A stretch of DNA of 64,000 nt, from the NCBI GenBank assembly GCA_964641245.1, contig CAZXML010000001.1, positions 229,460-293,459 of the forward strand. Direction: 5' to 3'. The position numbers and the translations under genes are program-made. Within the stretch, counting starts at the first letter, position 1. Each line of letters begins with the position of its first letter. This DNA comes from an uncultured Gammaproteobacteria bacterium. Lineage in GTDB: Bacteria; Patescibacteriota; Patescibacteriia; Magasanikbacterales; GWA2-37-8. Shown here piece after piece: positions 3,590-52,456 of the stretch. Below the pieces are notes generated by a model. The model had not been told where the DNA came from. It worked only from the letters and a program-made list of their open reading frames with translations, and ran no database searches.

Positions 3590-3751
3590 TTTGTCATTGC
3601 GACCCGTCAAGCGGGGAAGCAATCCTATCCACAGCTCACTCACTCTCTCCCCTACAAGGGGAGAGATAAAGAGAGGGGTTTATCGTTAAAATGTTAGCTT
3701 AACAACAACCAAAACCCCCTCTACTGTTCTCCCCCTTATAGGGGGAGAAAC
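3590..3751. repeat. Composite of repeat-element fragments (family B end, GC-hairpin fragment, two family C GGGGAGAG hairpins).
   Basis: The region contains tgtcattgcgac...gcaatcc and caagcggggaa. It also contains ctctctcccctacaaggggagag...gaggggtttatcg and cccctctactgttctcccccttatagggggagaaacc, which match pieces found at 36272, 32251 and 47041. Confidence 0.6.
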
Positions 3752-4540
3752 CTACTTCAAAAAACCTATATACCATTGTAAAATCCGCTCTCCCCACAAC
3801 ATAGCTACAAACGTACCAAGCGCGAGGTACGTTCCAAACGGAATGGCGCTGGAAAGATGCTTTTTGCGGGATGCCAGGAGTAATAAGCCGACAAAAGCTC
3901 CGACTACATACGCGATAAATAAAGCCACCAGCGTTACCGGCCAGCCCAACCAAATGCCCATCATGACACCAAGTCTAACATCTCCTCCTCCTATCCATTT
4001 TCCGCTGGAAATGACGTATTGTAAAAAGAAAAATCCTCCGGCGATTAGCGCGCCGATTAGCATTGATAACAAGCTATGTCCCAAGAAAATATTAAAAAAT
4101 AATCCGGCCAGAGCGCCAAACCAAATTACCTGGGGTAAAATTTCCTGATACAAATAATCGTAGATAAAAATTACAATGAGCAAGGATACAAAGGTAAAAT
4201 CCCGCAAAAAAAGCGCAGGCTCAACTGCCCCGCTGTTTAAATTTTTCCAGGCCACAAGCACAAAAATTAAGGCCGTGCCAAACTCTACAAAAGAAAAGTG
4301 TTTGGGAATTGCCGCTTTACATGTTCGGCATTTCCCCCATAACACTAAATAACTCAAAACCGGAATATTTTCGTACCAGGTAAGCTGACGCCGGCAGGCG
4401 GGGCACATACTGCGGCCGTTAACAATTTTAAAATTTTCGTGAGCGCGCCAAATCCAGGAGTTTAAAAAACTGCCCAGCGCGAGGCCGAGGAAAAAAATTA
4501 TAAAGTAAAAAAATTGCCCGATATCGTCCAAGTAATTCAT
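3752..4540 (-). CDS. pilD: Type IV prepilin peptidase (A24 family, PilD-like).
   Basis: 262 aa polytopic membrane protein with an N-terminal CPxC...CxxC zinc motif (MCPACRR...CRTC) and a conserved A24 layout. It lies adjacent to the pilin gene. Confidence 0.8.
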   Translation of the reverse strand: MNYLDDIGQFFYFIIFFLGLALGSFLNSWIWRAHENFKIVNGRSMCPACRRQLTWYENIPVLSYLVLWGKCRTCKAAIPKHFSFVEFGTALIFVLVAWKNLNSGAVEPALFLRDFTFVSLLIVIFIYDYLYQEILPQVIWFGALAGLFFNIFLGHSLLSMLIGALIAGGFFFLQYVISSGKWIGGGDVRLGVMMGIWLGWPVTLVALFIAYVVGAFVGLLLLASRKKHLSSAIPFGTYLALGTFVAMLWGERILQWYIGFLK

Positions 4541-4571
4541 ACGGACTAATTATATCATAATCAATAAAATC

Positions 4572-4604
4572 CACAACAAAAAACCCATCTTGCGAAGGGT
4601 TTTT
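4572..4604 (-). terminator. Intrinsic terminator downstream of the pilin gene.
   Basis: On the minus strand the hairpin aaacccttcgcaagatgggttt is followed by a T-run, directly after the pilin stop. Confidence 0.55.
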
Positions 4605-4624
4605 TGTTTTAAACTAAGTTTAAA

Positions 4625-5065
4625 CTATTGTTGAGCTATACCGGATGGGCTAAGGGAAATTCCTCCGCTCAATCCGTTAACTGTTGTTTCTAAGTTAGCA
4701 GTTACGATGTAAGAACTGGAAGTTGCTAATGTGTAAACGTAAGATTGGGTTGCTAAAGGATCTGACGGGACTTGACCCATATACGGGCTGCCACATCCGA
4801 CGGTTGTAAAGCCAGAAGCGTTTAAACAAGCTTGGCCAGTGGCTCCCAATGTGACGCCAGCACCTGCCGGGTAGGCAGTTTGATCAGTATAGTAAAGTTC
4901 CAAAGCGGTTTGTAATTGTTTTAAGTCGGACAAACGGCGCGCATCGCGGGCTTTTTGTCTGGCGTTTCCTAAGGCTACTACAGCTAAGGTTGATAATAAA
5001 CCAATAATAGCTATAACCACCAACAATTCAATCAAAGTGAAACCTTTCTTGTTCATGTTTTTCAT
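4625..5065 (-). CDS. Type IV pilin (prepilin with class III signal peptide).
   Basis: N-terminus [32 protein letters not shown] is a canonical G|FTLIELLVV prepilin cleavage and hydrophobic segment. A GGAGGGGG RBS lies upstream. Confidence 0.85.
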
Positions 5066-5152
5066 AGTTTCACCCCCTCTCCATAATTAATTCTGACATC
5101 ATTTTGCATACTTGGATTACATTAGACACGTCGCCATCATTTCATCACTGTG

Positions 5153-5236
5153 GAGTATTAAGTATTAGGTAGTAAGTATTATGCGACAATTTCGACTTGT
5201 ACGCTTAATACATAATACTTGATACTTAATACTAAA
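5153..5236. repeat. Family D element: inverted arrays of the heptamers (AAGTATT)n ... (AATACTT)n.
   Basis: Sequence gagtattaagtattaggtagtaagtatt...cttaatacataatacttgatacttaatact. Near-identical elements lie at 20182-20270 and 50955-51031. Confidence 0.7.
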
Positions 5237-5263
5237 ATTGCGTTTCTATTATATCACATTAAA

Positions 5264-5662
5264 CTATTTTTTATGCAAGACCGCCCGAACTTTATCCACA
5301 ACCTCTGATGGTTTAAAGTGGGTTTTTAGTAAATAACCGGCGGCGCCTTCGTCCAACCCGCGCTTAACATCATCTTTTTGGCCAAGGTTAGTAAGTAAAA
5401 TTATAGGGATATTTTTTATGGATGCGTCCGCCTTGACCGCTTCTAAAACCGCAAATCCGTCTAATTTTGGCAAGAGAATATCCAGCAAAACGATATCGGG
5501 CCTCTTTTTTTTGATATCGCTCAACCCCTTTTCACCATTATTGGCCATACTTACTTTAAACCCCTCCATTTCAAATTTTTTCTGATAAATTTCCGCCAGG
5601 AAAACGTCGTCTTCCACAATTAAAACATGGGATTGATTGTCTGACATAATTAAAATTAGCAA
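5264..5662 (-). CDS. Stand-alone response-regulator receiver (CheY-like REC) protein.
   Basis: 132 aa with the acidic pocket (VEDD...DIVLLDILLP), conserved T/S (LLTN) and K (GAAGYLLK) of REC domains. It sits inside the pilus gene cluster (PilH-like position). Confidence 0.75.
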   Translation of the reverse strand: MLILIMSDNQSHVLIVEDDVFLAEIYQKKFEMEGFKVSMANNGEKGLSDIKKKRPDIVLLDILLPKLDGFAVLEAVKADASIKNIPIILLTNLGQKDDVKRGLDEGAAGYLLKTHFKPSEVVDKVRAVLHKK

Positions 5663-5712
5663 TTAACAATTAGCAATTAACAATTGTTGGTTGTTAATTG
5701 TTTTTTGTTCAT
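5663..5712. repeat. Family F hairpin element (caattaacaattg palindrome plus ttgttaattgttttttgtt).
   Basis: Tandem agcaattaacaatt units form a CAATTAACAA/TTGTTAATTG stem followed by T-runs. The same motif lies at 26402-26470. Confidence 0.55.
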
Positions 5713-5715
5713 TAT

Positions 5716-6867
5716 TTAAACAATATTCCGTAACGCCAAACCAATGGCCACGGACATGCGCGGCCCTATTTGGCGCAAAATCGGTTTCAACCCCTCCTGA
5801 TATACGACTCTGGCCCAAGAATCTCCTACATATGTTTTAATTTTAAATTTTTCTTGAATATACTTTGCCAGAAACGGCATCAAGGCCATTCCGCCGGTTA
5901 AAATAATTTTTTCGGGGCGCTTGCCTTCATTGCCGGTTTGACGCAAATATAATTCCAAACTGACTTCTACCTCCTTCATTATAGGATCTACCACCGGCAT
6001 TAAAATGTCCAGCCATTTTTGTTCGGTTAATATATTATTACTGGTCGCGGCCAGATAGTCAAATAAATCATGCTTAGCCTGCTCAACTAGATCGCGTTCA
6101 ACCCCTAAAATATTTTGTAAAACCTTGTCTATTTTATCGCCACCCGATTCTATGCTTTGATGAGTAATTGGCATGCCCTGGTCTATTATAAAAAAGTTTG
6201 TGCGTTCGGAACCGATGTCTATTATCATAGATAACGCCTGATCCCTGCCAACCAAACATCGAGACAAGGCCGTTGATTCGGGTTCCAACGCCTCTAAAGA
6301 CAATCCGGCGCGCTGGAAAATTTTGGAATAAAATTCTATGAGTTTATGCGGTACGGCATTTACCAAAACCCGCTGTGATTTATCTTCGGGCAAACCTTTT
6401 AACACCTGATAATCCAAGGCCATTTCTTCTAAAGGCATGGGCAATAATTTTTTTACTTCCGCTTTAACAATATGATCTAGTTCTTCTTTCTTTAATATAG
6501 GAAGCGTAACCACCGCGTGAAAAACAGATGAAACCGGCAGGCTGACAACCGCAGTTTTGGATATTATTCGAGACGATTTGCAAATCGCCTTAAGAGTGTT
6601 CGCGTATTTTTCTATTTGCGCCTCGTTGTCACCCTCCCCTTTTAGGGGAGGGACAGAGGGTGGGGTATTCGCGGAGTTTTGTTTCTCTAAAAGACCGGCG
6701 ATATTTTTTTCTTCATTGGCCGCAAGTTTATGGATATCCTGTTTGCCGGATGTTAAACCGTACGAAAACAAAACCGGCCTGTTTTTTTCCAGGCGTAATT
6801 CTACTAATTTTATTCCCCCGGACCCGATGTCTACTCCGAGAAAGGATTTTGGTTTATTCCAAAACAT
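5716..6867 (-). CDS. pilM: Type IV pilus assembly ATPase-fold protein PilM.
   Basis: N-terminus FLGVDIGSGGIKLVELR has an actin-like/PilM fold with acetate-kinase-like phosphate loops. It contains an in-frame ~45 nt repeat-derived insertion (NTPPSVPPLKGEGD). Confidence 0.75.
   Translation of the reverse strand: MFWNKPKSFLGVDIGSGGIKLVELRLEKNRPVLFSYGLTSGKQDIHKLAANEEKNIAGLLEKQNSANTPPSVPPLKGEGDNEAQIEKYANTLKAICKSSRIISKTAVVSLPVSSVFHAVVTLPILKKEELDHIVKAEVKKLLPMPLEEMALDYQVLKGLPEDKSQRVLVNAVPHKLIEFYSKIFQRAGLSLEALEPESTALSRCLVGRDQALSMIIDIGSERTNFFIIDQGMPITHQSIESGGDKIDKVLQNILGVERDLVEQAKHDLFDYLAATSNNILTEQKWLDILMPVVDPIMKEVEVSLELYLRQTGNEGKRPEKIILTGGMALMPFLAKYIQEKFKIKTYVGDSWARVVYQEGLKPILRQIGPRMSVAIGLALRNIV
6628..6675. 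repeat. Family C (GGGGAGRG hairpin) element copy lying in-frame inside pilM.
   Basis: ccctccccttttaggggagggacagagggtggggtattcgcgg aligns with 47050 (ctctccccttttaggggagagacagagagaggggtatcgcgg). Confidence 0.65.
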
Positions 6868-11422: not shown

Positions 11423-11535
11423 TTGTCATCCTGAACGTAGTGAAGGATCTCTGTCCGTCGTTTTTTTGCAAACCAGACAGAGATTCTTCTCCGTCCCGCC
11501 TAGGCAGGCGGATCAGAATGACAATTGACGAAACC
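11423..11535. repeat. Family A TGTCAT-type palindromic element (MITE-like).
   Basis: ttgtcatcctgaacgtagtgaaggatctctgtc...gacagagattcttc...cagaatgacaa. Confidence 0.8.
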
Positions 11536-11604
11536 CTGTATGAGTTATGGGTAAATACATTATACCACATTGTTGGCATACTTAAAATATGTTATAATAA
11601 TAAC

Positions 11605-12090
11605 ATGGCAATTGAACCTAAGGAATCAAATTTATCACCAATAACGGAAACAGAAATTAAGGCTCCACCCGAAGAGCTTGATTTGCAATTGGAAAAAGAG
11701 AGCGCCGAGGAAACAGAACCGGCGGAAGAAAAATTACCTCCGAAGCAAGTTAGCCCGCAACCGGCGCGGCCAATGCCAAAGCCAAGACCGGCCATGCCAC
11801 TGCCCGCCAAAGACGCAGTCATGGTCAAAATAGAAAAAATAATGGAAGAGGGGCTGAACGATTCTTTTCAACGTTTATCCCCTGTTGCCAAGCAGGAATT
11901 TAAATTAAAGGGCGAACAAGCGGCTTCTCAAATCAGAGAACTATTAAAAAGCACCCACGTAAAGGTTAAAAAAATCCTGCGTCTTATTTTGGATTGGTTA
12001 AGAATTCTGCCGGGCGTAAATCATTTTTTTCTAGAACAGGAGGCAAAAATAAAAACAGACAAAATTATCGCTTTAAAAAACAAAGTCTAA
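11605..12090 (+). CDS. Hypothetical Pro/Glu-rich protein.
   Basis: Probable true start MAIEPKESNL at 11605. The ORF-track start at 11440 lies inside the repeat element. No recognisable domains. Confidence 0.45.
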   Translation: MAIEPKESNLSPITETEIKAPPEELDLQLEKESAEETEPAEEKLPPKQVSPQPARPMPKPRPAMPLPAKDAVMVKIEKIMEEGLNDSFQRLSPVAKQEFKLKGEQAASQIRELLKSTHVKVKKILRLILDWLRILPGVNHFFLEQEAKIKTDKIIALKNKV

Positions 12091-12096: not shown

Positions 12097-12164
12097 TGTC
12101 ATGCTGAACTTGTTTCAGCATCTACACACAAGACTAAAGATCCTGAAACAAGTTCAGGATGACA
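12097..12164. repeat. Family A' twin-hairpin element (TGTCATGCTGAA...TTCAGGATGACA).
   Basis: tgtcatgctgaacttgtttcagcatct...agatcctgaaacaagttcaggatgaca. A direct copy lies at 14725-14790 and a third at 34243-34304. Confidence 0.85.
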
Positions 12165-12168
12165 AAAT

Positions 12169-14718
12169 ATGGATATTACTGTTATAACAGATTTTCTCAA
12201 CAATTTGCTGGCGAACAGTCTTTTTCTTTTATTATTTCCTCCCGCTTTTGGCCTAATTATTTTAATTTCTTTTTTATTTATTTTAAAATCAGTCTTTACG
12301 GCAAAAGGGCGCGAAAGCAAGGCTTTTCATAAAACAGTGCTGTTAATAAAAGTTCCTAAAGAAAAAAAGGGTGAAAAACCGGATTCAACCAGCGCGGAAG
12401 CCAATCTTAATCAAACCCGCGAAGAAGTAGCCGTGGCCGAAACTCTTTTCTCGGCCATAGCCGGTTTAAAAAGAGAAAGCGGTTTTATGGCCTGGTTGCG
12501 AGGCCGGAACGATCATGTTTCATTCGAAATTGTGGTAAAGGACAGCAAAATATCTTTTTATGTGGCCATGCCGGATAAAATTAAAGGTTTTCTGGAACAG
12601 CAAATTCACGCTCAATATCCTCATGCCGAAATCACCGAAGAACCGGACTACAATATTTTCAAACCGCAAAGCCATATTGTCGGCGCTTATCTTTGGTTAA
12701 AACACAAATCGGCTTTCCCGATTAAAACATACAAAAATCTGGAAGGAGACCCTTTGATTTCTCTGCTCAATCCGCTAAGTAAAATTCTGGAAGACGAAGG
12801 AGCTATAATTCAGGTTGTAGCGCGTCCGGCTACCACTAAATGGCGCAGTCAGGGTGTCCGCATGATTCGTGATATTAAAAAAGGAGAAAAATTTGAATAC
12901 GTTGCCAGACGCGGCAAAATAGGTCGCGCTATGGCCGGGTGGACAAAGGTAATTTTCCCAAAAAAGAAAGAGAACAGCGAACATCAAGGTGAAAAACAAT
13001 ACCAACTCACCCAAATGGAAGAAGAGATGGTGAAAAACATGGAAGAAAAAATAAGCCGGGGGGGACTGGAAACCACTATTCGATTGATAAGTTCGGCCAA
13101 CAGCAAAGAAAAGGCTGTGCTTAATCTGGAAAACATTATCAACGCTTTTAGTCAATATAATTTGTACCGCTACGGCAATACTTTTGCGGCCGCTGTTCCC
13201 CGCAAGCCCAACGCTCTCATCCGCGATTCTATTTACCGCACCATGCGTGAGGATAAATATATGGTTTTGAGTACGGAAGAAATGGCCGGTTTGTGGCACT
13301 TGCCTACTCCCAGCACCGAAACTCCCAACATCAACTGGCTGGGCGCGCGCAAGGCTCCGCCACCAACAAATATGCCCAAAGAAGGCATTATTTTGGGCCG
13401 GGCCGTATACCGCGGCGAAGAAACAGTCGTGCGCATGAAACGCGACGACCGGCGCCGACATTTATATACTATTGGTAAATCCGGTAGCGGTAAATCCGTA
13501 TTTATTCAAAATTTAGCTGTTCAGGATATTATTAACGGCGAAGGCGTTTGCGTTATAGACCCGCACGGAGATTTCGCCGAATATGTTTTACAGCACGTGC
13601 CAAAAGAAAGAGCCGAAGATGTTATTTATTTCAATCCTTCCGACACCGAACGTCCGATTGGTTTAAACATGCTGGAAATAAATACCGAGGAACAAAAAGA
13701 TTTTGCCACCCAGGAAATGATTGCAATTTTTTACAGACTGGTAACGGACCCAAGCATGATTGGCCCGATGTTTGAACACAATATGCGCAACGTAATGTTG
13801 ACTCTGATGGCCGACATGGTAAACCCAGGCACAATTGCCGAAATTCCCCGCATGTTTACCGATGATGATTTTGTAAAAGAATGGAAAGCGAAACTTACGG
13901 ACCCGATGGTACTGGCTTTCTGGGATAAAGAAATGGCCAAAACATCCGACTTCCATAAATCGGAAATGCTGGGTTATTTGATTTCTAAGGTGGGACGGTT
14001 TGTGGAAAACGCCATGATCCGCAATATCATCGGCCAGTCACACTCCGGGTTTAATTTCCGCGAAATAATGGATAAGAAAAAAATTCTGATTGTAAATTTG
14101 GCCAAAGGTTTGGTGGGAGAAATAAACTCCAACCTATTGGGTTTAATAATTGTTTCCAAACTGCAGATGACCGCATTGGAGCGCGCATCTATGCCGGAAG
14201 AACAACGCAATGATTTTTATTTATACATAGATGAGTTCCAAAACTTTATCACCGAATCTATTGCCACTATTCTTTCCGAAGCGCGCAAATATCGTTTGGA
14301 GCTTATCATTGCGCATCAATATATGAAACAACTGGAAGACAATAAAGGTAAAACCACTGTGCGTGATGCCGTTTTGGGAAATGCCGGCACCATAGTTTCT
14401 TTCCGTATTGGCGTAGAAGACGCGGAAATTTTGGCTAAAGAATTCGCTCCGGTGTTTAGCGCCTACGATTTGGTGAACGTGGAGCAATATACCGCTTACG
14501 CCAAACTTTTAATTGACAATACCGCCGCTAAGCCGTTTAATATGTTTACCTATCCGCCCCGTGCCGGCAACAAAGAGCTGGCTGCAGCCATCAAAGAACT
14601 CTCCAGGCTGAAGTACGGACGGCCCAGAGAAATTGTGGAAGCGGAAATAAATGAACGCGCGCAGTTGGGTGTAGCTGTGTCTGAAGGAGAAACGACTACG
14701 AGCGAGGCGACACTTTAA
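12169..14718 (+). CDS. Membrane-anchored type IV secretion-like ATPase (VirB4/TraC-VirD4 superfamily, AAA_10/TraG-D_C-like C-terminal half).
   Basis: 849 aa with N-terminal TM helices. Walker A TIGKSGSGKS falls near residue 447 and Walker B is YLYIDEFQNF. The post-Walker-B motif ARKYRLELIIAHQYMKQL fits the (A)RK...hhhh(T/H)Q...QL signature of T4SS ATPases. The N-terminal ~440 aa are paralogous to 18610-20013. Confidence 0.6.
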   Translation: MDITVITDFLNNLLANSLFLLLFPPAFGLIILISFLFILKSVFTAKGRESKAFHKTVLLIKVPKEKKGEKPDSTSAEANLNQTREEVAVAETLFSAIAGLKRESGFMAWLRGRNDHVSFEIVVKDSKISFYVAMPDKIKGFLEQQIHAQYPHAEITEEPDYNIFKPQSHIVGAYLWLKHKSAFPIKTYKNLEGDPLISLLNPLSKILEDEGAIIQVVARPATTKWRSQGVRMIRDIKKGEKFEYVARRGKIGRAMAGWTKVIFPKKKENSEHQGEKQYQLTQMEEEMVKNMEEKISRGGLETTIRLISSANSKEKAVLNLENIINAFSQYNLYRYGNTFAAAVPRKPNALIRDSIYRTMREDKYMVLSTEEMAGLWHLPTPSTETPNINWLGARKAPPPTNMPKEGIILGRAVYRGEETVVRMKRDDRRRHLYTIGKSGSGKSVFIQNLAVQDIINGEGVCVIDPHGDFAEYVLQHVPKERAEDVIYFNPSDTERPIGLNMLEINTEEQKDFATQEMIAIFYRLVTDPSMIGPMFEHNMRNVMLTLMADMVNPGTIAEIPRMFTDDDFVKEWKAKLTDPMVLAFWDKEMAKTSDFHKSEMLGYLISKVGRFVENAMIRNIIGQSHSGFNFREIMDKKKILIVNLAKGLVGEINSNLLGLIIVSKLQMTALERASMPEEQRNDFYLYIDEFQNFITESIATILSEARKYRLELIIAHQYMKQLEDNKGKTTVRDAVLGNAGTIVSFRIGVEDAEILAKEFAPVFSAYDLVNVEQYTAYAKLLIDNTAAKPFNMFTYPPRAGNKELAAAIKELSRLKYGRPREIVEAEINERAQLGVAVSEGETTTSEATL

Positions 14719-14724
14719 TTAATT

Positions 14725-14790
14725 GTCATGCTGAACTTGTTTCAGCATCTGCTTAAGAACGAAAGATCCTGAAACAAGTTCAGGATGACA
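14725..14790. repeat. Family A' element, direct copy of 12097-12164.
   Basis: tgtcatgctgaacttgtttcagcatct...agatcctgaaacaagttcaggatgaca. Confidence 0.85.
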
Positions 14791-14796: not shown

Positions 14797-16383
14797 ATGA
14801 GTACGATCTACCGTAAATACCGGCCTCAATTATTTAGTGATATTGTTGGGCAACAGCATATTATAAAAACGGTTATTAACGAAATAACTGCCGGTAAGAT
14901 AGCGCACGCCTATCTTTTTTGCGGTCCCCGCGGAACGGGGAAAACCACTTTGGCCAGATTGCTCGCCAAGTCCATAAATTGCGCAAACAGAAAAGAAAAA
15001 GACAGCGAGCCGTGCGGTACGTGTTCGTCGTGCGCGGAGGTTACAGACGGCCGCAATATAGATGTGATAGAAATAGACGCGGCGTCGCACACGGGCGTAG
15101 AAAATATGCGCGAAAATATTATAGAAAACGCGCAATTTAAACCCACCAAATCAAAATATAAAGTATTTATCATCGACGAAGTGCACATGCTTTCCACCGG
15201 CGCCTTTAACGCGTTACTTAAGACGCTGGAAGAACCGCCCGCCCACGTAATTTTTATTCTGGCCACTACCGAACAACAAAAACTACCGGCCACCATTATT
15301 TCCCGCTGTCAGCGTTTTAATTTCAAAAGAGTCGGCTATGAAGATATGATGAAACGTCTGGGCGAAATTTGTAAAAGTGAAAAAGTAAAAGTAGACAAAG
15401 AAGTTTTGGAACGCGTTATAAATAAAAGCGATGGCTGTATGCGCGACGCCGAAAGTTTGCTAGGGCAAGTATTAAGTTTGGATTTGAAGAGCATTAGCCC
15501 GGAAGACGCGGAAATGATTTTGCCCACCTCCGGCATTCAAACAGTGCTGGAGTTTATAAATTTTATTTTAGAGAAACAAACCGCGGAAGCCATAAAAATG
15601 ATTCAAAATCTGGTTTCAGACGGCGTGAACCTGGAACAATTTGCTTACGATACACTGGAGGCTCTGCGACTTCTTATGATTCTACAGGTTGATCCACAGG
15701 CCAAAAATATCAACACCGATTACAGCGATGAGGCTCTAAAATCACTCAAAAAAACCGGTCTTAAAATTTCCGCCCAACATTTGGTAAAAATGATTGAAGC
15801 GTTAATTATCCGACGTCGGGATATTAAGTCATCGCCAATGCCGCAATTGCCGTTGGAGCTGTTTGTGGTGGAGTTTACGTGCGCTCCTGACCGCCACTTC
15901 GACGACACACCGATTGTCATTCTGACGAAGGAAGAATCTATACCGATAAAAAAAAATAGTATAGATCCCTCGTCGGCTACGGCCTCGCTCGGGATGACAA
16001 ACAATACAATCACCCAAACCATAAAAGACACCATCTCCAACCTTACCCACAAGCAAATTAAAACCACTTTAGAGGACATAAAAGCAAAATGGAATGACGT
16101 TATCCGGGAAATTTCCAAGGAAAACCATTCCCTTAGTTTCATTTTAAAAATGAGCAATCTTTTGGCTGTAGACGATGATGGTCTTAAAATCTCCGTCCCC
16201 TACTCTTTCCACAAAGATAAGCTGGAAGAAAATAAAACCAAAAAAACCATAGAACAGACCCTGACGAACTTTTTTTCGGAACGCATATTTTTACAATGCG
16301 AGGTTGTAGAAAGCCGGGTACAAACAAATAACGATGACGACTTAAATAAATTGGCTGCGGACTTTGGAGGGAATGTTGTATGA
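14797..16383 (+). CDS. dnaX: DNA polymerase III subunit gamma/tau.
   Basis: MSTIYRKYRPQLFSDIVGQQHI is followed by the Walker A GPRGTGKTT, the zinc module CGTCSSC and the DEVHML box. The ATG at 14785 lies within the repeat (ggATGACA), so the second ATG at 14797 is preferred. Confidence 0.9.
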   Translation: MSTIYRKYRPQLFSDIVGQQHIIKTVINEITAGKIAHAYLFCGPRGTGKTTLARLLAKSINCANRKEKDSEPCGTCSSCAEVTDGRNIDVIEIDAASHTGVENMRENIIENAQFKPTKSKYKVFIIDEVHMLSTGAFNALLKTLEEPPAHVIFILATTEQQKLPATIISRCQRFNFKRVGYEDMMKRLGEICKSEKVKVDKEVLERVINKSDGCMRDAESLLGQVLSLDLKSISPEDAEMILPTSGIQTVLEFINFILEKQTAEAIKMIQNLVSDGVNLEQFAYDTLEALRLLMILQVDPQAKNINTDYSDEALKSLKKTGLKISAQHLVKMIEALIIRRRDIKSSPMPQLPLELFVVEFTCAPDRHFDDTPIVILTKEESIPIKKNSIDPSSATASLGMTNNTITQTIKDTISNLTHKQIKTTLEDIKAKWNDVIREISKENHSLSFILKMSNLLAVDDDGLKISVPYSFHKDKLEENKTKKTIEQTLTNFFSERIFLQCEVVESRVQTNNDDDLNKLAADFGGNVV

Positions 16384-17210
16384 AGGTGAAATTGATTATT
16401 TTTATTTTTTCCGCAATGTTTTTAGTCCACCCTGTCATAATCGCCCGTGCGGCTGATTTTGTTAATCTTTCCGTGCCTTATGTGCCGGAAGCCCCGGATG
16501 GTTTAATGGTAAAACCGTGGAATAATTCCTGCGAAGAAGCTTCCACAGTTATGCTTGATGAATACTATTCCGGAAACAATGATAAGAGGCTTGCTAACGT
16601 AAAGGCAAAAAAATCAATTTTATTTTATATAGACATTGAAAATAAGCTTTTTGGATATAACAGCAACACTAACGCCGCCGAAATGACAAAAGTAATAAAC
16701 GGATACTCCAAATACTTTGAAGCTAAAATAAAAACCGACCCGACCCTGGATGAAATAAAAAATGAACTAAATTTAGGCCGTCCGGTGATTGCTCTGCTTT
16801 ACGGAAAAAACCTGAATAACCCCCGCATTCAATTTGCCCGGAGCGGTTCTTATTATCATACATTTGTAATAAAAGGCTTTGATGACGCCACCGAAGAATT
16901 TATTGTAAATGATAATGGCGACCTGAAAAAAGGCCTTGACTTGCGCTATAAATATGATACAATCTTAGGCGCTTTACGTGATTACAATCACAAGACGAAA
17001 TTAACGGAAAAGCCCGCAACTGCGCTGTTTACCAGTCAGAGAATGCTGGTAAAAACAAAGGATAGCGGACGAATTTATCTTATCAATGACAACAAAAAAC
17101 ACCATGTTTCTTCTCCACAATTGTTTAAAGACCGCAAATGGAAATGGAGCTTTGTGATGACGGTGGATAAATCATGGCTGGAGAAATTCCAATCAGGACC
17201 GGCAATATAG
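16380..17210 (+). CDS. Secreted C39-like (papain-fold) peptidase domain protein.
   Basis: A signal peptide is present. The motif NNSCEEASTVMLDEYYSG resembles the Peptidase_C39_2 catalytic Cys region. The start overlaps the dnaX stop (ATGA). Confidence 0.5.
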   Translation: MKVKLIIFIFSAMFLVHPVIIARAADFVNLSVPYVPEAPDGLMVKPWNNSCEEASTVMLDEYYSGNNDKRLANVKAKKSILFYIDIENKLFGYNSNTNAAEMTKVINGYSKYFEAKIKTDPTLDEIKNELNLGRPVIALLYGKNLNNPRIQFARSGSYYHTFVIKGFDDATEEFIVNDNGDLKKGLDLRYKYDTILGALRDYNHKTKLTEKPATALFTSQRMLVKTKDSGRIYLINDNKKHHVSSPQLFKDRKWKWSFVMTVDKSWLEKFQSGPAI

Positions 17211-17212: not shown

Positions 17213-17283
17213 TCCGAGGTGGTCTAATGGTAGGACAGCAGACTCTGAATCTGCTTATCTTGGTTCGAATCCAAGCCTCGGAA
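17213..17283 (+). tRNA. tRNA-Gln (anticodon CTG).
   Basis: Cloverleaf with acceptor tccgagg/cctcgga, anticodon stem gcaga/tctgc, loop ctCTGaa and T-arm cttgg-ttcgaat-ccaag. No CCA is encoded. Confidence 0.85.
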
Positions 17284-17286
17284 CAT

Positions 17287-20181: not shown

Positions 20182-20270
20182 TAAGTATTAAGTATTAAGT
20201 ATTACGTATAAAGTATTATGAATCAAATATCGCTTTTACCTTAATACTTAATACATGATACTTGATACAA
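20182..20270. repeat. Family D heptamer inverted-array element.
   Basis: ctaagtattaagtattaagtattacgtataaagtatt...ccttaatacttaatacatgatacttgataca. Confidence 0.7.
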
Positions 20271-28357: not shown

Positions 28358-28460
28358 TGTCATCCTGAATGTAATGAAGGATCTCTGTCTCAATCGCCAA
28401 ACGGACAGAGATTCTTCGCTTCACTCAGAATGACAAATGACGTGTGACCTGAATGACAGT
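28358..28460. repeat. Family A TGTCAT-type element.
   Basis: ttgtcatcctgaatgtaatgaaggatctctgtctcaatcgccaaacggacagagattcttcgcttcactcagaatgacaa differs by 1 nt in the core from the copy at 60740. Confidence 0.85.
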
Positions 28461-28468
28461 TAAAAAAT

Positions 28469-29149
28469 TTACAACTTGTACTTTCCTTCATTTTCATCGT
28501 TAATTATTTCTCCGCCATGCAAGGTGATAACGCGGCGGCGCAGATGATTAACAATTTCGCGGTTGTGTGTTACCAAAATAATAGTGGTGCCAAATTCGTT
28601 TATTTTTTTTAAAATAGAAACAATTTCGGCGGCGTTGATAGAATCCAAGTTGCCTGTCGGTTCATCTGCCACAATAATTTTTGGTCTGTGCACCAATGAC
28701 CGGGCGATGGCGGTGCGCTGTTGCTCTCCACCGGATAATTGAAACGGATAACTGTCGGCCTTGTGCGCCAGATTTACAATTTCCAAAACTTGCGGAACTA
28801 CCTGGCAAATGCGATCTCTGTGTTCTCCGGCCACTTCCAGGGCGAACGCAATATTTTCGTAAACAGTTCTTTTTGGCAATAATTTAAAATCCTGAAACAC
28901 GACGCCGATTTGCCGGCGTAAAAAAGGAACGTCGTTAGAGTCTATATTGGTAATATCCCAACCCCCGATTTCTATAGTACCTTTGTTGGGGCGCTCTTCG
29001 GCGATAAGCATTTTGACTAACGTTGTTTTGCCTGTGCCACTCTGACCGACAATAGACACAAACTCTCCCGCGTTTATGTGCAGATTTAAATGGCGCAAGG
29101 CGGGCGTGCCGGTGGGATAAATTTTGGTGACGCCGGTTATTTTTATCAT
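28469..29149 (-). CDS. ftsE: Cell-division ATP-binding protein FtsE.
   Basis: Walker A GQSGTGKTT, ABC signature LSGGEQQRTAIARS and Walker B IIVADEPTGNLD. Confidence 0.9.
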   Translation of the reverse strand: MIKITGVTKIYPTGTPALRHLNLHINAGEFVSIVGQSGTGKTTLVKMLIAEERPNKGTIEIGGWDITNIDSNDVPFLRRQIGVVFQDFKLLPKRTVYENIAFALEVAGEHRDRICQVVPQVLEIVNLAHKADSYPFQLSGGEQQRTAIARSLVHRPKIIVADEPTGNLDSINAAEIVSILKKINEFGTTIILVTHNREIVNHLRRRVITLHGGEIINDENEGKYKL

Positions 29150-29201
29150 ATACAGTTACCGATTCATTATACCACGATTTATGGTAAACAAAAATATTAA
29201 C

Positions 29202-29315
29202 TTGTCATCCTGAATGAAATGAAGGATCTCTGTCCGTTTAGCTGTCATTCCCATAACAATGGGAATCCAGACAATCATCGATTCGACTGGATTCCCGCTT
29301 TGGCGGGAATGACAA
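29202..29315. repeat. Family A half-element fused to a family E element (TGTCATTCCC...GGGAATGACAA).
   Basis: cttgtcatcctgaatgaaatgaaggatctctgtc is followed by tgtcattcccataacaatgggaatcc...ggattcccgctttggcgggaatgacaa. Confidence 0.75.
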
Positions 29316-29321
29316 TTACCA

Positions 29322-29861
29322 TTACATAAACACCGCTTTAAGTTTGCGGCGGCGGGCTTTATAGTCCGGCACAGCTTTGGCCACCAAGGCCCAGAACCGG
29401 AAAGAGTGATTTAGCTCTTTTAGATGACAAAGTTCATGAACAACAATATATTCGGCCAATTCTACGGGCAGATGAATGATTTTGTAATTAAAATTTAGAT
29501 TGCCTTTTTTGGAACAACTGCCCCACCGGCTCTTGTGATTTTTTATGCAGACGCGGTTGAAAGAAAAATTGTAAAATTTATTTATTTCCGCAATTTTTTC
29601 TTTTACAAATTCGCGCGCCTGCTCTTTTAACTGTCGATATTCACGAACGCCGCCGCGACGCCCTTCACGAAATACCGGACCCAACTTTTGAAAGTGGGCT
29701 ACTTTTTTTAATACCCAGCCGGCTTTGTCGGCCAAAAATTTTTCCACTTTATTTTGTGAAAAAAAATGCGGCACGGTTACCACTACGCTGGCGTCGCAAC
29801 GAACTGTGATGCGCATGTGTCTGGCACGGGCGCTTTGTTTGAGGGTATAGGGTAAATTCAT
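29322..29861 (-). CDS. DUF45/YgjP-like HExxH metal-dependent hydrolase (WLM/SprT-like fold).
   Basis: HELCHLKELNHS zinc-binding motif with a YgjP-family size and layout. Confidence 0.65.
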   Translation of the reverse strand: MNLPYTLKQSARARHMRITVRCDASVVVTVPHFFSQNKVEKFLADKAGWVLKKVAHFQKLGPVFREGRRGGVREYRQLKEQAREFVKEKIAEINKFYNFSFNRVCIKNHKSRWGSCSKKGNLNFNYKIIHLPVELAEYIVVHELCHLKELNHSFRFWALVAKAVPDYKARRRKLKAVFM

Positions 29862-29919
29862 TGTGTAAGGGATTCCTCCACTACGGTCGGAATGACAATG
29901 CTAAAGTGATGCGTAAAAT

Positions 29920-30792
29920 TTACAAAAGAAGTCCGTCTCGGTTTTCTTCTTTATCGTAATTCAGGATATAAACATCGGCTTTGTATTCGTCCATGCCCAC
30001 ATATTCGGCTTTTTTGTCCAAAATTGCCTGCATGGGGCGGCAGGAACCGCAACCTTCTTCGCCGGACGGACATTTGAAACGTTCCAATTGGCGGGCTAAT
30101 TTTACCTGTTGAGCCACATCCATAATATTTTTTCGCGCGGTTTCCAAGTCGGGCAATTCTTTTGGCGTTAAGGTGTCACTGCTGTCTAAATACCAATAGC
30201 TGGCTTTGCTTACTTTGCGTTTTTGGCAGTTATGAACAAGCAGGTGGTAAATCGGCAATTGCAAAGATTCCGGATCTTCTTCGGACCGGCCGGTTTTAAA
30301 ATCTATAATATGAACACTGTCGGTTTCGGGCAGATACTCCAGCCAGTCTATTTTTCCGCATAAAATAATATTATCTTCTTCAGATAACCAAAATTGCGGC
30401 AAATCCATTTGGATTTTTACGGCCAAACCGGAAAGCGGGGCGGAATTGTTCATTACCCGGCGTAACATATCCTGCCCGCGCGTTTTGTATTTGTGTTCCG
30501 TATCGCCATTGGTAAAACCGCCGTTTTTGCCCGATACTTTTGCCCAGACTTTTTCAAACTTGGCGATAAGAGATTCGGAAAAGCGGGAGTGTTTAGGCAA
30601 AACCGACAAAGACTCCAAAACTTCGTGCACAGCCGAGCCTAAAGAAAGCGCCGGGCTGACAAGTTTTATTTTATGATTTGTTTTGGGATCGCGGTAAACA
30701 TTTTTTAGATAATACGCGCGCGGACAACGCAAAAAATCACTCATTGAAGAATGCGAAACCCAGGTGGCCGTGTATTTGTCGGGCATACACAA
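29920..30792 (-). CDS. PD-(D/E)xK nuclease of the RecB/Cas4 family with a 4-Cys cluster.
   Basis: GKIDWLEY...VHIIDFKTG...QLPIYHLL are RecB-nuclease motifs II/III/QxxxY. An N-terminal Cys (FLRCPRAYYL) plus a C-terminal C-x6-C-x2-C (CPSGEEGCGSC) gives a Cas4/AddB-type Fe-S arrangement. Confidence 0.7.
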   Translation of the reverse strand: MCMPDKYTATWVSHSSMSDFLRCPRAYYLKNVYRDPKTNHKIKLVSPALSLGSAVHEVLESLSVLPKHSRFSESLIAKFEKVWAKVSGKNGGFTNGDTEHKYKTRGQDMLRRVMNNSAPLSGLAVKIQMDLPQFWLSEEDNIILCGKIDWLEYLPETDSVHIIDFKTGRSEEDPESLQLPIYHLLVHNCQKRKVSKASYWYLDSSDTLTPKELPDLETARKNIMDVAQQVKLARQLERFKCPSGEEGCGSCRPMQAILDKKAEYVGMDEYKADVYILNYDKEENRDGLLL

Positions 30793-30844
30793 AAAATTTA
30801 TTTATAAATTTTTTTCAATTTCCAAATCCCAATTTCCAAACCAC

Positions 30845-30877
30845 TTGTCATCCTGAATGAAATGAAGGATCTCTGTC
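30845..30877. repeat. Family A half-element.
   Basis: ttgtcatcctgaatgaaatgaaggatctctgtc. Confidence 0.7.
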
Positions 30878-31041
30878 TACTCTTGCGCCTTTGCCACTGC
30901 GTCTTCTTCGTCGTAGCCTTCGTCTTCCAATTTCTCAACCTTTTTGGCTTCTTTTTCGTCTAAATCAAATTCGTCCATTAATTCGTGGACATCTTCGGCC
31001 AAATCGTCGGCTGGTTTTTTGTCGTCGTCGTCATTTTGCAT
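30878..31041 (-). CDS. Possible 54-aa highly acidic protein.
   Basis: MQNDDDDKKPADDLAEDVHELMDEFDLDEKEAKKVEKLEDEGYDEEDAVAKAQE. The stop abuts the repeat half-element. Confidence 0.3.
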
Positions 31042-31113
31042 ATAACTTAATTTAATGAATTAGAATTTAACACTATAATTCTACTATGTTATTTGTTTGT
31101 TGGCAAACTTAAA

Positions 31114-31223
31114 TTGTCATTCTGAGTGAAACGAAGAATCTCTGTCTGGTTGGCCAACGCGATACTGACAGATATCCTTCACGGAGTTTACACTGAACGC
31201 AGTGAATGTGTTCAGGATGACAA
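31114..31223. repeat. Family A-related TGTCAT element (divergent).
   Basis: ttgtcattctgagtgaaacgaagaatctctgtc...tgttcaggatgacaa. Confidence 0.7.
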
Positions 31224-31232: not shown

Positions 31233-32198
31233 TTATACGTCCCACTTAAAACCATTGCCGTAGCTACCCCACTCGGCGGTTTTTTCGAATTGGGGTTGGC
31301 GGAGTTCCAGGAAATCTATTATTCCCTGCGGGGATAAATCATAACCGGATATGGAAAAATCTACAGCTTCGTTGGTGGTTGGGCGGGTGACGGAAACCAT
31401 AACCGGTTGTTTTTTGCCGATGGCGTAAGCCAGCTTAACCATCACTTCTCCGCCAACTTTTTTCACCGCGTCTACCGCTATTTTGCGCGCCATATAGGCG
31501 CCACTGCGGTCTACTTTGGTGCCGTCTTTGCCGGAATAGGCGCCACCGCCAACCGGAACTTGCGGGCCATAAGCGTCACAAATAATTTTTCGGCCGGTGA
31601 CGCCGGTGTCCGCGTCAAATCCGCCGATGTCCCAATCGCCGGCCGGGTTGGCGTAGATGGATAATTCGGAATCCACTTCTTTGCCTTTAAACCATTCAAA
31701 AATTATATCGCGCAGTTCGGAAGATTTTGCTTTGTGAAAACTGGCCACCACGCTGCAGATTTTTCCGTCGCGCAATGTGATTTGAGTTTTTCCATCATTG
31801 GGGAATTTGGCATAGATTAATTTGTTTAAATTCCGCGCCAAATATAATTCTTGTGGAACGAATTCTTCGTTTGCGTCGCAGGCATAGCCAACCATTATTC
31901 CCTGATCGCCCGCCCCGCCTACATCCACTCCTTGGGCAATCTCTGAACTCTGTTGAACAATATTTGTATTCACCTGATATTGTTCGCCGGCCACGCGCTT
32001 GGCAATTTGCGCGGCGTCGATTTTTGCGTTAGTGGTAAGTTCGCCGGTAAGAGTGATAAGTCCGTGACCGCCCATGCTTTCCATAGCCACCCGGCTATGC
32101 GGATCCTGTTCTAAACAAGCGTCTAAAATAGCGTCCGATATTCTGTCGCAAATTTTATCCGGGTGACGCGGCGAAACCGATTCGGCTGTGATGAGCAT
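31233..32198 (-). CDS. metK: S-adenosylmethionine synthetase (compact, 321 aa).
   Basis: ESVSPRHPDKICDRISDAILDA, GAGDQGIMVGYA, TGRKIICDAYG and GGGAYSGKDGTKVDRSGAYMAR are present. Confidence 0.9.
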   Translation of the reverse strand: MLITAESVSPRHPDKICDRISDAILDACLEQDPHSRVAMESMGGHGLITLTGELTTNAKIDAAQIAKRVAGEQYQVNTNIVQQSSEIAQGVDVGGAGDQGIMVGYACDANEEFVPQELYLARNLNKLIYAKFPNDGKTQITLRDGKICSVVASFHKAKSSELRDIIFEWFKGKEVDSELSIYANPAGDWDIGGFDADTGVTGRKIICDAYGPQVPVGGGAYSGKDGTKVDRSGAYMARKIAVDAVKKVGGEVMVKLAYAIGKKQPVMVSVTRPTTNEAVDFSISGYDLSPQGIIDFLELRQPQFEKTAEWGSYGNGFKWDV

Positions 32199-32351: not shown

Positions 32352-32569
32352 ATTGACCTCGACCGAACAAATAAATTAAACAAAAAAACTTTCCTTGGCA
32401 GGAAAGAAAGTCGACCTTTATCTTTCCCCGTTGGGGCTAGATTTGGCACCTTATCCCGACTAAGTCGGGACAGGTTGTCGGCAGGTCTTAGGGCTAGTTC
32501 CCTCGCTGCACTCTTGATAACTATATCGTACCAGGTATTTCTTAATTATCAAAAAATACCTGGGGATAA

Positions 32570-34242: not shown

Positions 34243-34304
34243 TCATAGTTGTCATGCTGAATTTATTTCAGCATCTAATCGGTATAGATCCTGAAACAAG
34301 TTCA
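34243..34304. repeat. Family A' twin-hairpin element.
   Basis: tgtcatgctgaatttatttcagcatct...agatcctgaaacaagttcaggatgac. Confidence 0.8.
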
Positions 34305-34312
34305 GGATGACG

Positions 34313-34808: not shown

Positions 34809-35429
34809 TTATACCATGTCCGAACCCAATTGATCCTCAATCAACTTCTTAACTTCCACCAAATCTCCATCCGTTAAATCCGGAATTATTTTGATAAAAT
34901 TATTGTAAATAACTTTCATGTTAGCCACTTTAATATCTTGCTTATACTGCTGACTGATATCGGAGAGCAGGAGTTGAGTTTTGGAAGGGCTGGCGATATT
35001 TAAAATTTCCAGAACAAACTGCTGGCTTTTGGTTTGAATGGCGATGCCGCCAAAATTAAATAAACTTTGGGCGATACCTTTTTTTCTGACGACCACATCT
35101 TTTACATCCAAATAACTGACGGATGAAATAATTTCATCAAACCAGCCCAGCCGGTGAATATCCACCACCCGGTCGCTGGTGATAACCAAAACATTTACGT
35201 GGTTTAAAAACCAGGTGCGTAAAATTATATAAAGTCCAATAAACATTCCCAACCCGTAAACTATATTCCCCCACCAGCCATAGAAAAAAAGGCGGAACAT
35301 AAAAAAAGACGAGGCAAATAAAAATATCAGACCGAGTAAATACTTCCAGGCATAAGCCGCCACGTGGGGCGCGATTACGGAAATAATTTTTTCATCTTCT
35401 TTCAGGTGGATTTTTTTGGCAATGGACAT
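34809..35429 (-). CDS. Membrane protein with a bacterial PH-like domain (YdbS/YdbT-like).
   Basis: Two N-terminal TM helices are followed by a ~100-aa beta-rich domain, matching the bPH_2 architecture. Confidence 0.5.
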   Translation of the reverse strand: MSIAKKIHLKEDEKIISVIAPHVAAYAWKYLLGLIFLFASSFFMFRLFFYGWWGNIVYGLGMFIGLYIILRTWFLNHVNVLVITSDRVVDIHRLGWFDEIISSVSYLDVKDVVVRKKGIAQSLFNFGGIAIQTKSQQFVLEILNIASPSKTQLLLSDISQQYKQDIKVANMKVIYNNFIKIIPDLTDGDLVEVKKLIEDQLGSDMV

Positions 35430-38130: not shown

Positions 38131-38147
38131 GCCAATTATGATACACT
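38119..38147 (+). promoter_or_regulatory. Candidate outward-reading promoter created by the IS right end.
   Basis: TTGACA (38119-38124, overlapping the transposase stop), a 17-nt spacer, then TACACT. An aggaaggg RBS precedes the ATG at 38180. Confidence 0.3.
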
Positions 38148-38179
38148 CATCACAGATACAAACAGAAAGGAAGGGTCGC

Positions 38180-38662
38180 ATGAAACGATGTACATCCTGC
38201 GGAAAGTCCGATTTACGTTTGGGTACAGTGTCTCACCACCTATCGGTCGGTGGGTATAAATTTAGCGGGCGAATGCCTGGCGAAATCTGTGATACATGTG
38301 GCAGAGAGACTGTGGAAGCTAAGTATTTGGTGACATTCGAGCTGGTGGTGGCTGGACTATTCGCTGAATCGGGACTAACCTCAACACCTGAAGCGTTCCA
38401 TTTCATGCGCCATTCGCTAGGTATGACGGCTGTTGAAATGGCAAGCCTGTTCGGAGTGACGCCCGAAACAGTTTCCCGATGGGAAAATGGAAAACTCCCA
38501 ATCGAAACGCGGTCCCTCGCGCTACTTGGTTGCATGGTCATGGATGCGGTTAATCGACGCAAGAATACCATGAATTTGCTCCACGCAGTTCGTTCGCCCA
38601 CGAATATGAAGGGGATAGTACTGGTGCTTGATGGAGTCAATGTCTGGGCTGACGTGCCCTAA
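38180..38662 (+). CDS. MqsA-like protein (N-terminal CxxC...CxxC zinc ribbon plus XRE-type HTH).
   Basis: MKRCTSCGKSDLRLG...GEICDTCGRETV zinc ribbon, then MTAVEMASLFGVTPETVSRWENGK HTH. No MqsR-like toxin is adjacent. Confidence 0.55.
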   Translation: MKRCTSCGKSDLRLGTVSHHLSVGGYKFSGRMPGEICDTCGRETVEAKYLVTFELVVAGLFAESGLTSTPEAFHFMRHSLGMTAVEMASLFGVTPETVSRWENGKLPIETRSLALLGCMVMDAVNRRKNTMNLLHAVRSPTNMKGIVLVLDGVNVWADVP

Positions 38663-47040: not shown

Positions 47041-47150
47041 TACCCAATCGCTCTCTCCCCTTTTAGGGGAGAGACAGAGAGAGGGGTATCGCGGATGTCG
47101 AATTACAAATACCCCCACCCTGCCCTCCCCCTAAATGGGGGAGGAACGAT
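47041..47150. repeat. Family C element (two GGGGAG hairpins).
   Basis: ctctctccccttttaggggagagacagagagaggggtatcgcg...ccctccccctaaatgggggagg. Confidence 0.7.
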
Positions 47151-50954: not shown

Positions 50955-51031
50955 GTATAAAGTATTAAGTATTAGGTATTAAGTATTTAACAAATATTCC
51001 CATAATACTTGATACATAATACTTAATACTT
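50955..51031. repeat. Family D heptamer inverted-array element.
   Basis: gtataaagtattaagtattaggtattaagtatt...cataatacttgatacataatacttaatactt. Confidence 0.7.
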
Positions 51032-52369: not shown

Positions 52370-52456
52370 TGTCATTGCGAGGAGTCGTAGCGACGTGGCA
52401 ATCCCATAGTCAGTACTACTAGTATAGTGGGATTGCTTCGCTTTGCTCGCAATGAC
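52370..52456. repeat. Family B element (intergenic, ftsA-ftsZ).
   Basis: tgtcattgcgaggagtcgtagcgacgtggcaatcccatagtcagtactactagtatagtgggattgcttcgctttgctcgcaatgaca. Confidence 0.85.

Follow-up and report, generated by a model that had tools for sequence, protein, structure and literature searches.

REP dimers on both sides of a dnaX-linked, VirD4-like ATPase gene of Candidatus Magasanikbacteria: probably dispersed repeats around a fixed gene

A gene for an 849-aa membrane-anchored ATPase in a genome of Candidatus Magasanikbacteria (Patescibacteria) is enclosed on both sides by near-identical direct copies of a short palindromic element, here designated A', and the downstream copy is followed at once by dnaX. 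The locus lies in a 64,000-nt stretch of DNA (contig CAZXML010000001.1, positions 229,460 to 293,459, forward strand), which is referred to below as the window and from the first nucleotide of which all coordinates are counted. Does the pair of repeats mark the gene as a unit that moves or is regulated on its own, as a preliminary description made from the sequence alone had proposed, or does it have another origin? Results of our analysis indicate that the ATPase gene is very probably a fixed, vertically inherited chromosomal gene, that the flanking A' elements are separate copies of a dispersed dimer of repetitive extragenic palindromes (REPs), and that the bracket is a by-product of the density of these repeats. 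The features on which the argument turns are the following:

11518-12090, plus strand: small conserved open reading frame (ORF) with no Pfam match; start taken from the Joint Genome Institute (JGI) gene call on the near-identical contig L259
12097-12164: A' copy 1, 68 nt, inverted heterodimer of two TGTC-tagged hairpins with a 16-nt spacer
12097-12122: left arm of copy 1, TGTC + ATGCTGAA/CTTGT/TTCAGCAT + C
12139-12164: right arm of copy 1, read as the reverse complement, TGTC + ATCCTGAA/CTTGT/TTCAGGAT + C
12169-14718, plus strand: membrane-anchored VirD4/TrwB-like P-loop ATPase, 849 aa, with an N-terminal DUF8128 region
14724-14790: A' copy 2, 67 nt, arms as in copy 1, spacer of 15 nt
14797-16383, plus strand: dnaX (DNA polymerase III gamma/tau), true start at 14797
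16380-17210, plus strand: Peptidase_C39_2-like gene, the last of a conserved co-directional string
34250-34312: A' copy 3, between two minus-strand genes, abutting the stop codon of a DivIC-like gene

Copies 1 and 2 lie in direct orientation on either side of the ATPase gene and agree at 61 of the 68 positions of their alignment: each 26-nt arm is the same in both (26/26), and the spacer, of 15-16 nt, is not. The presence of near-identical direct repeats around the gene, as claimed in the preliminary description, was thus confirmed, with the start of copy 2 moved from 14725 to 14724. Some of its measurements apply to one copy only: the length of 67 nt is that of copy 2 and not of copy 1, and the distance of 6 nt past a stop codon is that of copy 1 from the end of the small ORF (TAA, 12088-12090), copy 2 starting 5 nt past the ATPase stop codon (TAA, 14716-14718). 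The upstream element, said to abut the start codon, ends 4 nt ahead of the ATPase ATG at 12169. In general, the A' copies stand 0-6 nt after stop codons, and 4-6 nt ahead of the ATPase and dnaX start codons. The arrangement is not an assembly artefact, because the same A' pair is carried independently by the JGI assembly (L259), with 2 mismatches in 8550 nt.

Each A' arm consists of an unpaired TGTC tag, an 8-bp stem opening with A-T/T-A, a 5-nt loop, and a short C tail, which in the three copies reads C followed by TA or TG. The left and right arms differ at two positions (a G-C to C-G flip), and these differences compensate each other within the local hairpins; the minimum-energy fold of the RNA is the long hairpin (-35 to -36 kcal/mol, z -7.6 to -9.6), in which the flip gives rise to G.G and C.C mismatches. 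Copy 3 is equal to copy 1 at 57 of 68 positions, and its right arm has the canonical CGTC tag, while all other A' arms have TGTC. The flanks of the three copies (AAC/AAA, AAT/TTG, and AGT/TTA) reveal inverted ends without target-site duplication. No Rfam family matched the A' elements at gathering score, and up to an E value of 1 the sole match was a chance miRNA.

By their predicted structure, the A' elements are inverted heterodimers of CGTC/TGTC-tagged REP hairpins, a known widespread class. Literature searches with the peptide or DNA strings of the repeat retrieved nothing relevant, and the match to the class came by way of the term "CGTC-tagged". The CGTC-tagged REP superfamily was described by Di Nocera, De Gregorio and Rocco (2013, BMC Genomics 14:522). 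Its tag is often TGTC (CCTC variants are allowed), its stems, of 8-9 bp, have A-T at positions 1 and 2, its loops are of 4-5 nt, and its tail consensus is CCA, of which only the first base fits the A' tails. According to the same study, heterodimers prevail among the dimers of families 2 and 3, and copies are found near the 3' ends of ORFs or, in some cases, in frame within a gene, often one of replication or repair. No transposase is known to go with the superfamily, to which Rickettsia RPE-4/RPE-6 and Neisseria dRS3 belong.

A scan for arms with the pattern TGTCATSCTGAANNNNNTTCAGSATC, in one genome per species, matched at least 120 stretches. Those listed come from Patescibacteria, Bacteroidota, Treponema, Nitrospirota, Alpha- and Gammaproteobacteria, a Rickettsia endosymbiont, Melainabacteria, Elusimicrobiota, and others. 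Among the matches listed, the two free S positions were G..C in 64 cases and C..G in 73, and never G..G or C..C, and this perfect covariation (137/137) supports the local hairpin of each arm. Tags of TGTC (229) and CGTC (34) were found in the 120 other loci listed, and dimers with tags outside were, among the matches listed, 61 heterodimers versus 5 homodimers.

The window itself is rich in such repeats. It contains 34 arms of the TGTCAT-plus-hairpin type, compared to 0-6 in shuffled sequences, and 22 canonical tagged arms of strict geometry, compared to 1.4 in shuffles. Together they form 17 or more elements, which belong to several subfamilies and all end with TGTCAT...ATGACA; in several of these subfamilies tandem G.A/A.G mismatches take the place of stem pairs 6-7. 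At least eight genes, the ATPase gene included, have elements of this superfamily in both flanking gaps. The others are the small ORF 11518-12090, the ftsE-like, YgjP-like, PD-(D/E)XK nuclease, and DivIC-like genes, the ORF 34809-35429, and ftsA. The case of ftsA (52587-53825, minus strand) resembles that of the ATPase gene in that it lies between two direct copies of the TTGCGAG type (TGTCATTGCGAGGAG...), at 52370-52457 and 53868-53955, which are 86% identical. The probability that two of the three A' copies fall in adjacent gaps, of about 57 intergenic gaps, is about 0.10. The bracketing of the ATPase gene by A' copies is in itself not remarkable.

Elements of the superfamily occur also within coding regions, namely in frame in three core genes:

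15915-15999: TGTC-tagged REP dimer in dnaX, encoding ...VILTKEESIPIKKNSIDPSSATASLGMT...
36272-36360, minus strand: REP dimer in a murE-like gene
46253-46332: REP dimer in an ELP3-like radical SAM gene

The peptides that such dimers encode include VIASKAKQSH...IATSLLAPRNDK and VILSKAKDLSLS...SLPQNDN. When aligned with solved structures of ELP3 and MurE, the proteins show interruptions precisely at the repeat-encoded segments (in the case of ELP3, query residues 468-519 stand against only residues 401-416 of the target), and the linker that accommodates the dnaX copy is hypervariable throughout the relatives. As to orientation, 13 of 14 dimers share one absolute orientation (6/7, 3/3, and 3/3 per subfamily); we claim no bias, because orientation was defined separately for each subfamily and the hand-estimated combined P is about 0.14. 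The densest cluster of repeats, at 28358-31222, comprises at least nine arms in 3 kb around the ftsE-like, YgjP-like, and PD-(D/E)XK nuclease genes; one pair, nested or side by side, is at 29203-29314, and solo arms stand at 29872-29897 and 30846-30870.

While the repeats are dispersed, the ATPase gene keeps its place. A search for its homologs detected 3784, of which the best 120 are all 73-100% identical and, where named, belong to Candidatus Magasanikbacteria or other Patescibacteria. Eleven related loci were fetched by way of these homologs, and a separate, unbiased set of loci was anchored on dnaX. The order corA (minus strand), small ORF, ATPase, dnaX, and C39-like peptidase is kept in all 11 related loci (L001-L008 and L257-L259), the small ORF being the first gene of the conserved string and encoding 161-244 aa in relatives. 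In the dnaX-anchored set, the ATPase gene lies at most 5 kb upstream of dnaX and on the same strand in at least 21 loci, in which the ATPase is 42-78% and DnaX 36-57% identical; this metagenome scan gave distant relatives only (at most 57% identity) and bears on deep synteny, not on recent excision. These identities show that the linkage of the two genes is old and that the ATPase is better conserved than DnaX. Two of the loci (L129 and L130) have 71-78% identity of the ATPase versus 52% of DnaX. Among the metagenome loci anchored on dnaX (L129-L174), a DUF8128/VirD4-like ATPase is found just upstream of dnaX across distant Patescibacteria. The ATPase gene is under strong purifying selection, and its conservation and place just upstream of dnaX suggest a core function tied to replication or DNA handling.

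The two junctions of the ATPase gene differ between relatives as follows (the identity is that of the ATPase):

L005, 96%: upstream, a TTGCGAG-type member of the same superfamily; downstream, a CCTGAGCG-type member
L006, 91%: upstream, a TTGCGAG-type member with a nested insert; downstream, an unrelated palindrome
L001/L002, 90%: upstream, no repeat; downstream, an unrelated palindrome
L007/L008, 88%: upstream 12 nt, downstream 36 nt, no repeat at either
L003, 87%: upstream 1 nt, downstream 9 nt, no repeat at either
L257, 87%: upstream 4 nt, downstream 18 nt, no repeat at either
L258, 86%: upstream 4 nt, downstream 8 nt, no repeat at either
L004, 84%: upstream 3 nt, no repeat; downstream 66 nt, no TGTC repeat

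The gene is thus present at the same place without flanking repeats in L003, L004, L007, L008, L257, and L258, which is what the preliminary description itself had named as evidence against its reading. The window, L259, L005, and L006 have 0.34-0.58 canonical arms per kb, and about 81 kb of relatives with ATPase identity of 90% or less have essentially none. This density in some relatives and essential absence in others indicates that the repeats arrived within one sub-lineage. As judged from these sequences, they landed in junctions that were formerly a few nucleotides long, and the ATPase gene stayed put. The unrelated palindromes at the ATPase-dnaX junction are long; they are AAATCCGAATATCGAAATCCGAAACAA…TTGTTTCGGATTTCGATATTCGGATTT in L001/L002 (8550-8712) and CGCAGATGG…CCATCTGCG in L006 (4353-4451). 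This junction seems to attract hairpin elements in general.

Sequence profiles assign the ATPase, as a predicted membrane-anchored P-loop ATPase, to the VirD4/TraG/TrwB branch. It has a Walker A motif GKSGSGKS at residues 436-443 (not at about 447, as first estimated), the Walker B motif YLYIDEFQNF, noted already in the preliminary description, at residues 684-693, and ARKYRLELIIAHQ at residues 705-717. An N-terminal hydrophobic segment at about residues 13-47 (Kyte-Doolittle above 1.8) forms a long helix in the AlphaFold model, and precomputed annotations place DUF8128 in the N-terminal part. The Pfam matches TrwB_AAD_bind (2.3e-11), T4SS-DNA_transf (9.3e-11), DUF87/HerA-central (1.9e-7), and TraG-D_C (8e-7) are all above cut-offs. 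The best NCBIfam matches are TraD and VirD4-like models, all far under their equivalog cut-offs (SXT_TraD, 51 bits versus 366; conju_CD1115, 39 versus 250), and the nearest sequence in the PDB, that of TrwB, matches only around the P-loop. None of the Pfam VirB4 models (CagE_TrbE_VirB, AAA_10, VirB4_CagE) matched at E values up to 1, and TIGR00929 gave an E value of 0.019 with 13 bits, versus a cut-off of 643. Of the profiles that had been proposed as a check, T4SS-DNA_transf and TraG-D_C were therefore matched and AAA_10 and CagE_TrbE_VirB were not; the assignment to a superfamily of both VirB4/TraC and VirD4/TraG proteins is broadly right in its second half, supported by Pfam, NCBIfam, and TrwB, and its first half has no support from sequence profiles.

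The observation that no other genes of a type IV secretion system (T4SS) lie nearby was borne out, since the Pfam scan of all 58 ORFs of the 64-kb window detected no relaxase, VirB4, VirB6, VirB8, or VirB11. Type IV pilus genes (prepilin peptidase, pilin, and PilM) are located at 3752-6867. The occurrence of VirD4-type proteins without a secretion system has a precedent, as 5,713 homologs of this type, reported from 2,918 Patescibacteria genomes, include no more than 148 close to virB4, and their takeover for another function (exaptation) was suggested (PMC12102498, Microb Genom 2025).

The same scan of the 58 ORFs detected neither a Y1/RAYT transposase nor an integrase. The only transposase gene in the window (37034-38122) is that of an rve-type (DDE) insertion sequence (IS), the perfect 15-bp inverted repeats of which, at 36973-36987 (TACATCGGTAACACT) and 38086-38100 (AGTGTTACCGATGTA), are unrelated to the TGTCAT ends. 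This IS adjoins the murE-like gene with the intragenic repeat and is followed by a gene of an MqsA-like antitoxin (38138-38662). The absence of target-site duplication and the unrelatedness of these inverted repeats speak against a classical miniature inverted-repeat transposable element. A guilt-by-association search, in which 2417 ORFs of 168 arm-bearing loci were clustered, revealed no recurrent nuclease or transposase; the families that recur near arms, judged by eye from representatives, are housekeeping (ABC ATPase, response regulator, carbamoyl-phosphate synthase, and tRNA synthetases) or phage structural (portal, capsid, and terminase). The PD-(D/E)XK nuclease gene (29920-30792), which lies between two solo arms, was dropped as a candidate, as only one homolog was found near an arm elsewhere, about 3 kb off.

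The repeats expanded only in the sub-lineage that holds the source genome, and two A' copies landed in adjacent intercistronic junctions, which in most sister lineages are of 1-18 nt and free of repeats. If GTAG REPs and their RAYT transposases are a guide, the elements may be moved, probably in the form of single-stranded hairpins, by a trans-acting enzyme whose gene is not beside them. Within the probable operon they would be co-transcribed, which would place hairpins of about -35 kcal/mol 4-6 nt ahead of the ATPase and dnaX starts; these may alter mRNA decay or translation as a side effect.

Several points weigh against this explanation or parts of it. The two closest relatives, L005 and L006, have different repeats at the same junctions, which is poorly explained by simple random insertion and suggests site preference or replacement. 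Copies 1 and 2 of A', with their identical arms, are closer to each other than to copy 3, and this likeness is equally compatible with two independent insertions and with a recent local duplication or gene conversion. We infer the co-transcription of the A' elements, and any RNA-level effect, from their position inside a likely operon. As regards the protein, a Foldseek search with the AlphaFold model, which was built on a 50-sequence alignment and is of low confidence (mean pLDDT 62, pTM 0.43), recovered the group of TrwK/VirB4, TrwB, Cag-beta, and HerA with low TM scores and ranked full-length VirB4/TrwK chains first, with a TM score of only about 0.25. Given such a model, the fold search supports the superfamily of the predicted ATPase, and not any fold of its N-terminal region. 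Finally, the window covers only 64 kb of the genome, and T4SS genes as well as a cognate transposase may be encoded elsewhere in it.

Among the other explanations, the one that survives best, although we consider it unlikely, is that the hairpins were selected as cis-regulatory signals that terminate, attenuate, or stabilise the ATPase transcripts and so set the ratio of ATPase to DnaX. The great stability of the predicted RNA hairpins, the position of the elements close after stops and just before starts, and the AGGA that the right arm supplies 9-11 nt upstream of the ATPase and dnaX start codons are in its favour, and published work argues for RNA-level action of many REPs. However, the elements are absent from the same junctions of sister lineages, which have spacers of 1-18 nt, the hairpin is not followed by a T-run on the sense strand, no Rfam family is matched, the same element at 34250 is in the opposite orientation relative to transcription, and related elements stand by unrelated genes and within coding regions. 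The repeat-mediated regulation or termination of the ATPase gene suggested in the preliminary description is on these grounds not upheld. A search for intrinsic terminators gave no plus-strand terminator-like site at either element and only weak matches on the minus strand.

Less probable still is a role of the two direct copies as recombination substrates, through which homologous recombination or slippage during replication would delete or amplify the ATPase gene, so that its presence would vary within populations. Two identical 26-nt blocks in direct orientation do lie 2.6 kb apart, and repeats of this kind can recombine. Nevertheless, no variant lacking the ATPase gene occurs among the relatives examined, the arrangement is intact in the independent assembly, conservation of the gene is high, and the identical tracts are short and broken by a divergent spacer.

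The mobile single-gene cassette, in which the A' pair would form the ends of a composite-transposon-like or integron-cassette-like unit moving the ATPase gene, is suggested by direct repeats with identical arms tightly around one gene of a family typical of conjugative elements, but is highly improbable in view of the fixed position of the gene in all 11 related loci, mostly without these repeats or with different ones, its ancient linkage to dnaX, its strong purifying selection and better conservation than that of DnaX, the lack of an integrase or Y1 transposase in the window, the unrelated inverted repeats of the rve IS, the lack of target-site duplications at the element ends, and the similar bracketing of ftsA and six other genes.

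If the ATPase gene is, as we favor, a fixed gene among dispersed repeats, are the repeats themselves still moving? That CGTC/TGTC-tagged REPs are actively mobile in this Patescibacteria sub-lineage is a tentative idea, and we regard it as rather doubtful. It fits with their density here and in the relatives with ATPase identity of 96% and 91% and their essential absence from sister lineages at or below 90%, with the different subfamilies at the same intercistronic junctions of close relatives, and with the occurrence of identical arms on phage contigs and across many phyla. If it is true, the trans-acting enzyme could come to light when genomes of about 1 Mb with many and with none of these repeats are compared for the genes they contain, and so could a site preference for junctions close to stop codons. 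The search space for the spreading enzyme is small, because the genomes are tiny and both repeat-rich and repeat-free sister lineages exist. In predicted viral contigs of IMG/VR, the same 26-nt tagged arm was found in 48 stretches (L209-L256), and several of these contigs have clusters of ORFs that resemble, by eye, genes of portal, major capsid, terminase, and prohead protease proteins. Phages could carry REP arms between hosts.

The repeats are also a hazard for gene calling. The downstream A' copy contributes, as the preliminary description had noticed, a false ATG ahead of dnaX: the ATG at 14785, within the right arm of that copy, is not the true start, because the conserved N-terminus of DnaX, MSTIYRKYRPQ, common to all five aligned relatives, starts at 14797. 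Upstream of the small ORF lies a further element:

11424-11523, between corA (minus strand) and the small ORF (plus strand): TGTC-tagged REP dimer of another subfamily, with left arm ATCCTGAA and an extended right arm

It overlaps the mechanically called GTG start of the small ORF, at 11440; in both cases the mechanical ORF call starts in a repeat and the true start is downstream. REP elements thus create false starts as well as spurious peptides. In addition, the mechanical call of a FolD ORF at 17227 overlaps the gene of tRNA-Gln (17213-17284), and its true start is downstream.

Two further families of dispersed repeats and a riboswitch were found in the window. An unrelated palindromic family (…CTCTCCCCTxxxAGGGGAGAG…) has three copies, at 3637-3679, 6624-6666, and 47045-47087, and the peptide SLPLGKGE in the DnaX linker of L001 is a signature similar to that of this family. 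Another repeat, with AT-rich inverted arms AGTATTAAGTATTAGGTA … TAATACTTAATACT, has three intergenic copies, at 5154-5236, 20191-20265, and 50961-51026. A SAM riboswitch (Rfam RF00162, 55.8 bits) is located on the minus strand at 32415-32523, upstream of the S-adenosylmethionine synthetase gene (31233-32198).

With the mobile cassette set aside as a false lead, and with repeats that are not specific to the ATPase gene, both components of the locus can be compared to known systems. The ATPase shares with type IV coupling proteins (VirD4/TraG/TraD/TrwB) the N-terminal membrane anchor, the P-loop domain with Walker A and B motifs, and matches to three Pfam models. It differs from them in having about 350 additional aa (DUF8128) between the anchor and the ATPase domain and in scoring far under all curated equivalog cut-offs. 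Its gene, in contrast to theirs, has no relaxase, VirB4, VirB6, or VirB8 gene within 64 kb, lies on the chromosome, keeps its synteny with dnaX across Patescibacteria, and shows very strong conservation. It is like the orphan coupling-protein homologs of Patescibacteria (PMC12102498) in being of VirD4 type and without adjacent virB4, and may have its place among the 5,713 homologs; the dnaX linkage, DUF8128, and flanking repeats seen here are not described in that study.

With the GTAG REPs, REPINs, and BIMEs, which are mobilised by RAYT (TnpA-REP, Y1) transposases, the elements described here have in common a hairpin with a tag of four nucleotides at its foot, an arrangement in inverted doublets around a spacer that varies, intergenic dispersal, and possible RNA-level side effects. 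They differ in their tag (TGTC/CGTC, not GT[AG]G), in that no RAYT or Y1 transposase is encoded among the 58 ORFs of the window, and in that no transposase family recurs near the 168 arm-bearing loci, which come from other genomes and viral contigs.

The likeness to the CGTC-tagged REPs (BMC Genomics 14:522) includes the unpaired 4-nt tag, the stem of 8-9 bp with A-T/T-A first, the loop of 4-5 nt, and the short tail, the high copy number, the mostly intergenic location near the 3' ends of ORFs, the prevalence of inverted heterodimers, the in-frame intragenic copies, and the lack of an adjacent transposase. The differences concern the tail (C-T-N instead of the CCA consensus), the tandem G.A/A.G at stem pairs 6-7 in several subfamilies, the filling of the same junction by different subfamilies in close relatives, and the host phylum, as Patescibacteria (Candidate Phyla Radiation) are outside the five phyla of that study. 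Both kinds of component, the orphan Patescibacteria ATPases similar to coupling proteins and the CGTC/TGTC-tagged REP dimers, are therefore already known. What is new is modest: a further host phylum for the repeat class, the invasion of a tight core operon by repeats, and the turnover of subfamilies at fixed junctions. A known and mechanistically unexplained class of repeats is thereby extended to the ultra-small genomes of Patescibacteria, where its members invade operons with little room between genes and occur in frame within the core genes dnaX, murE, and the ELP3-like gene.

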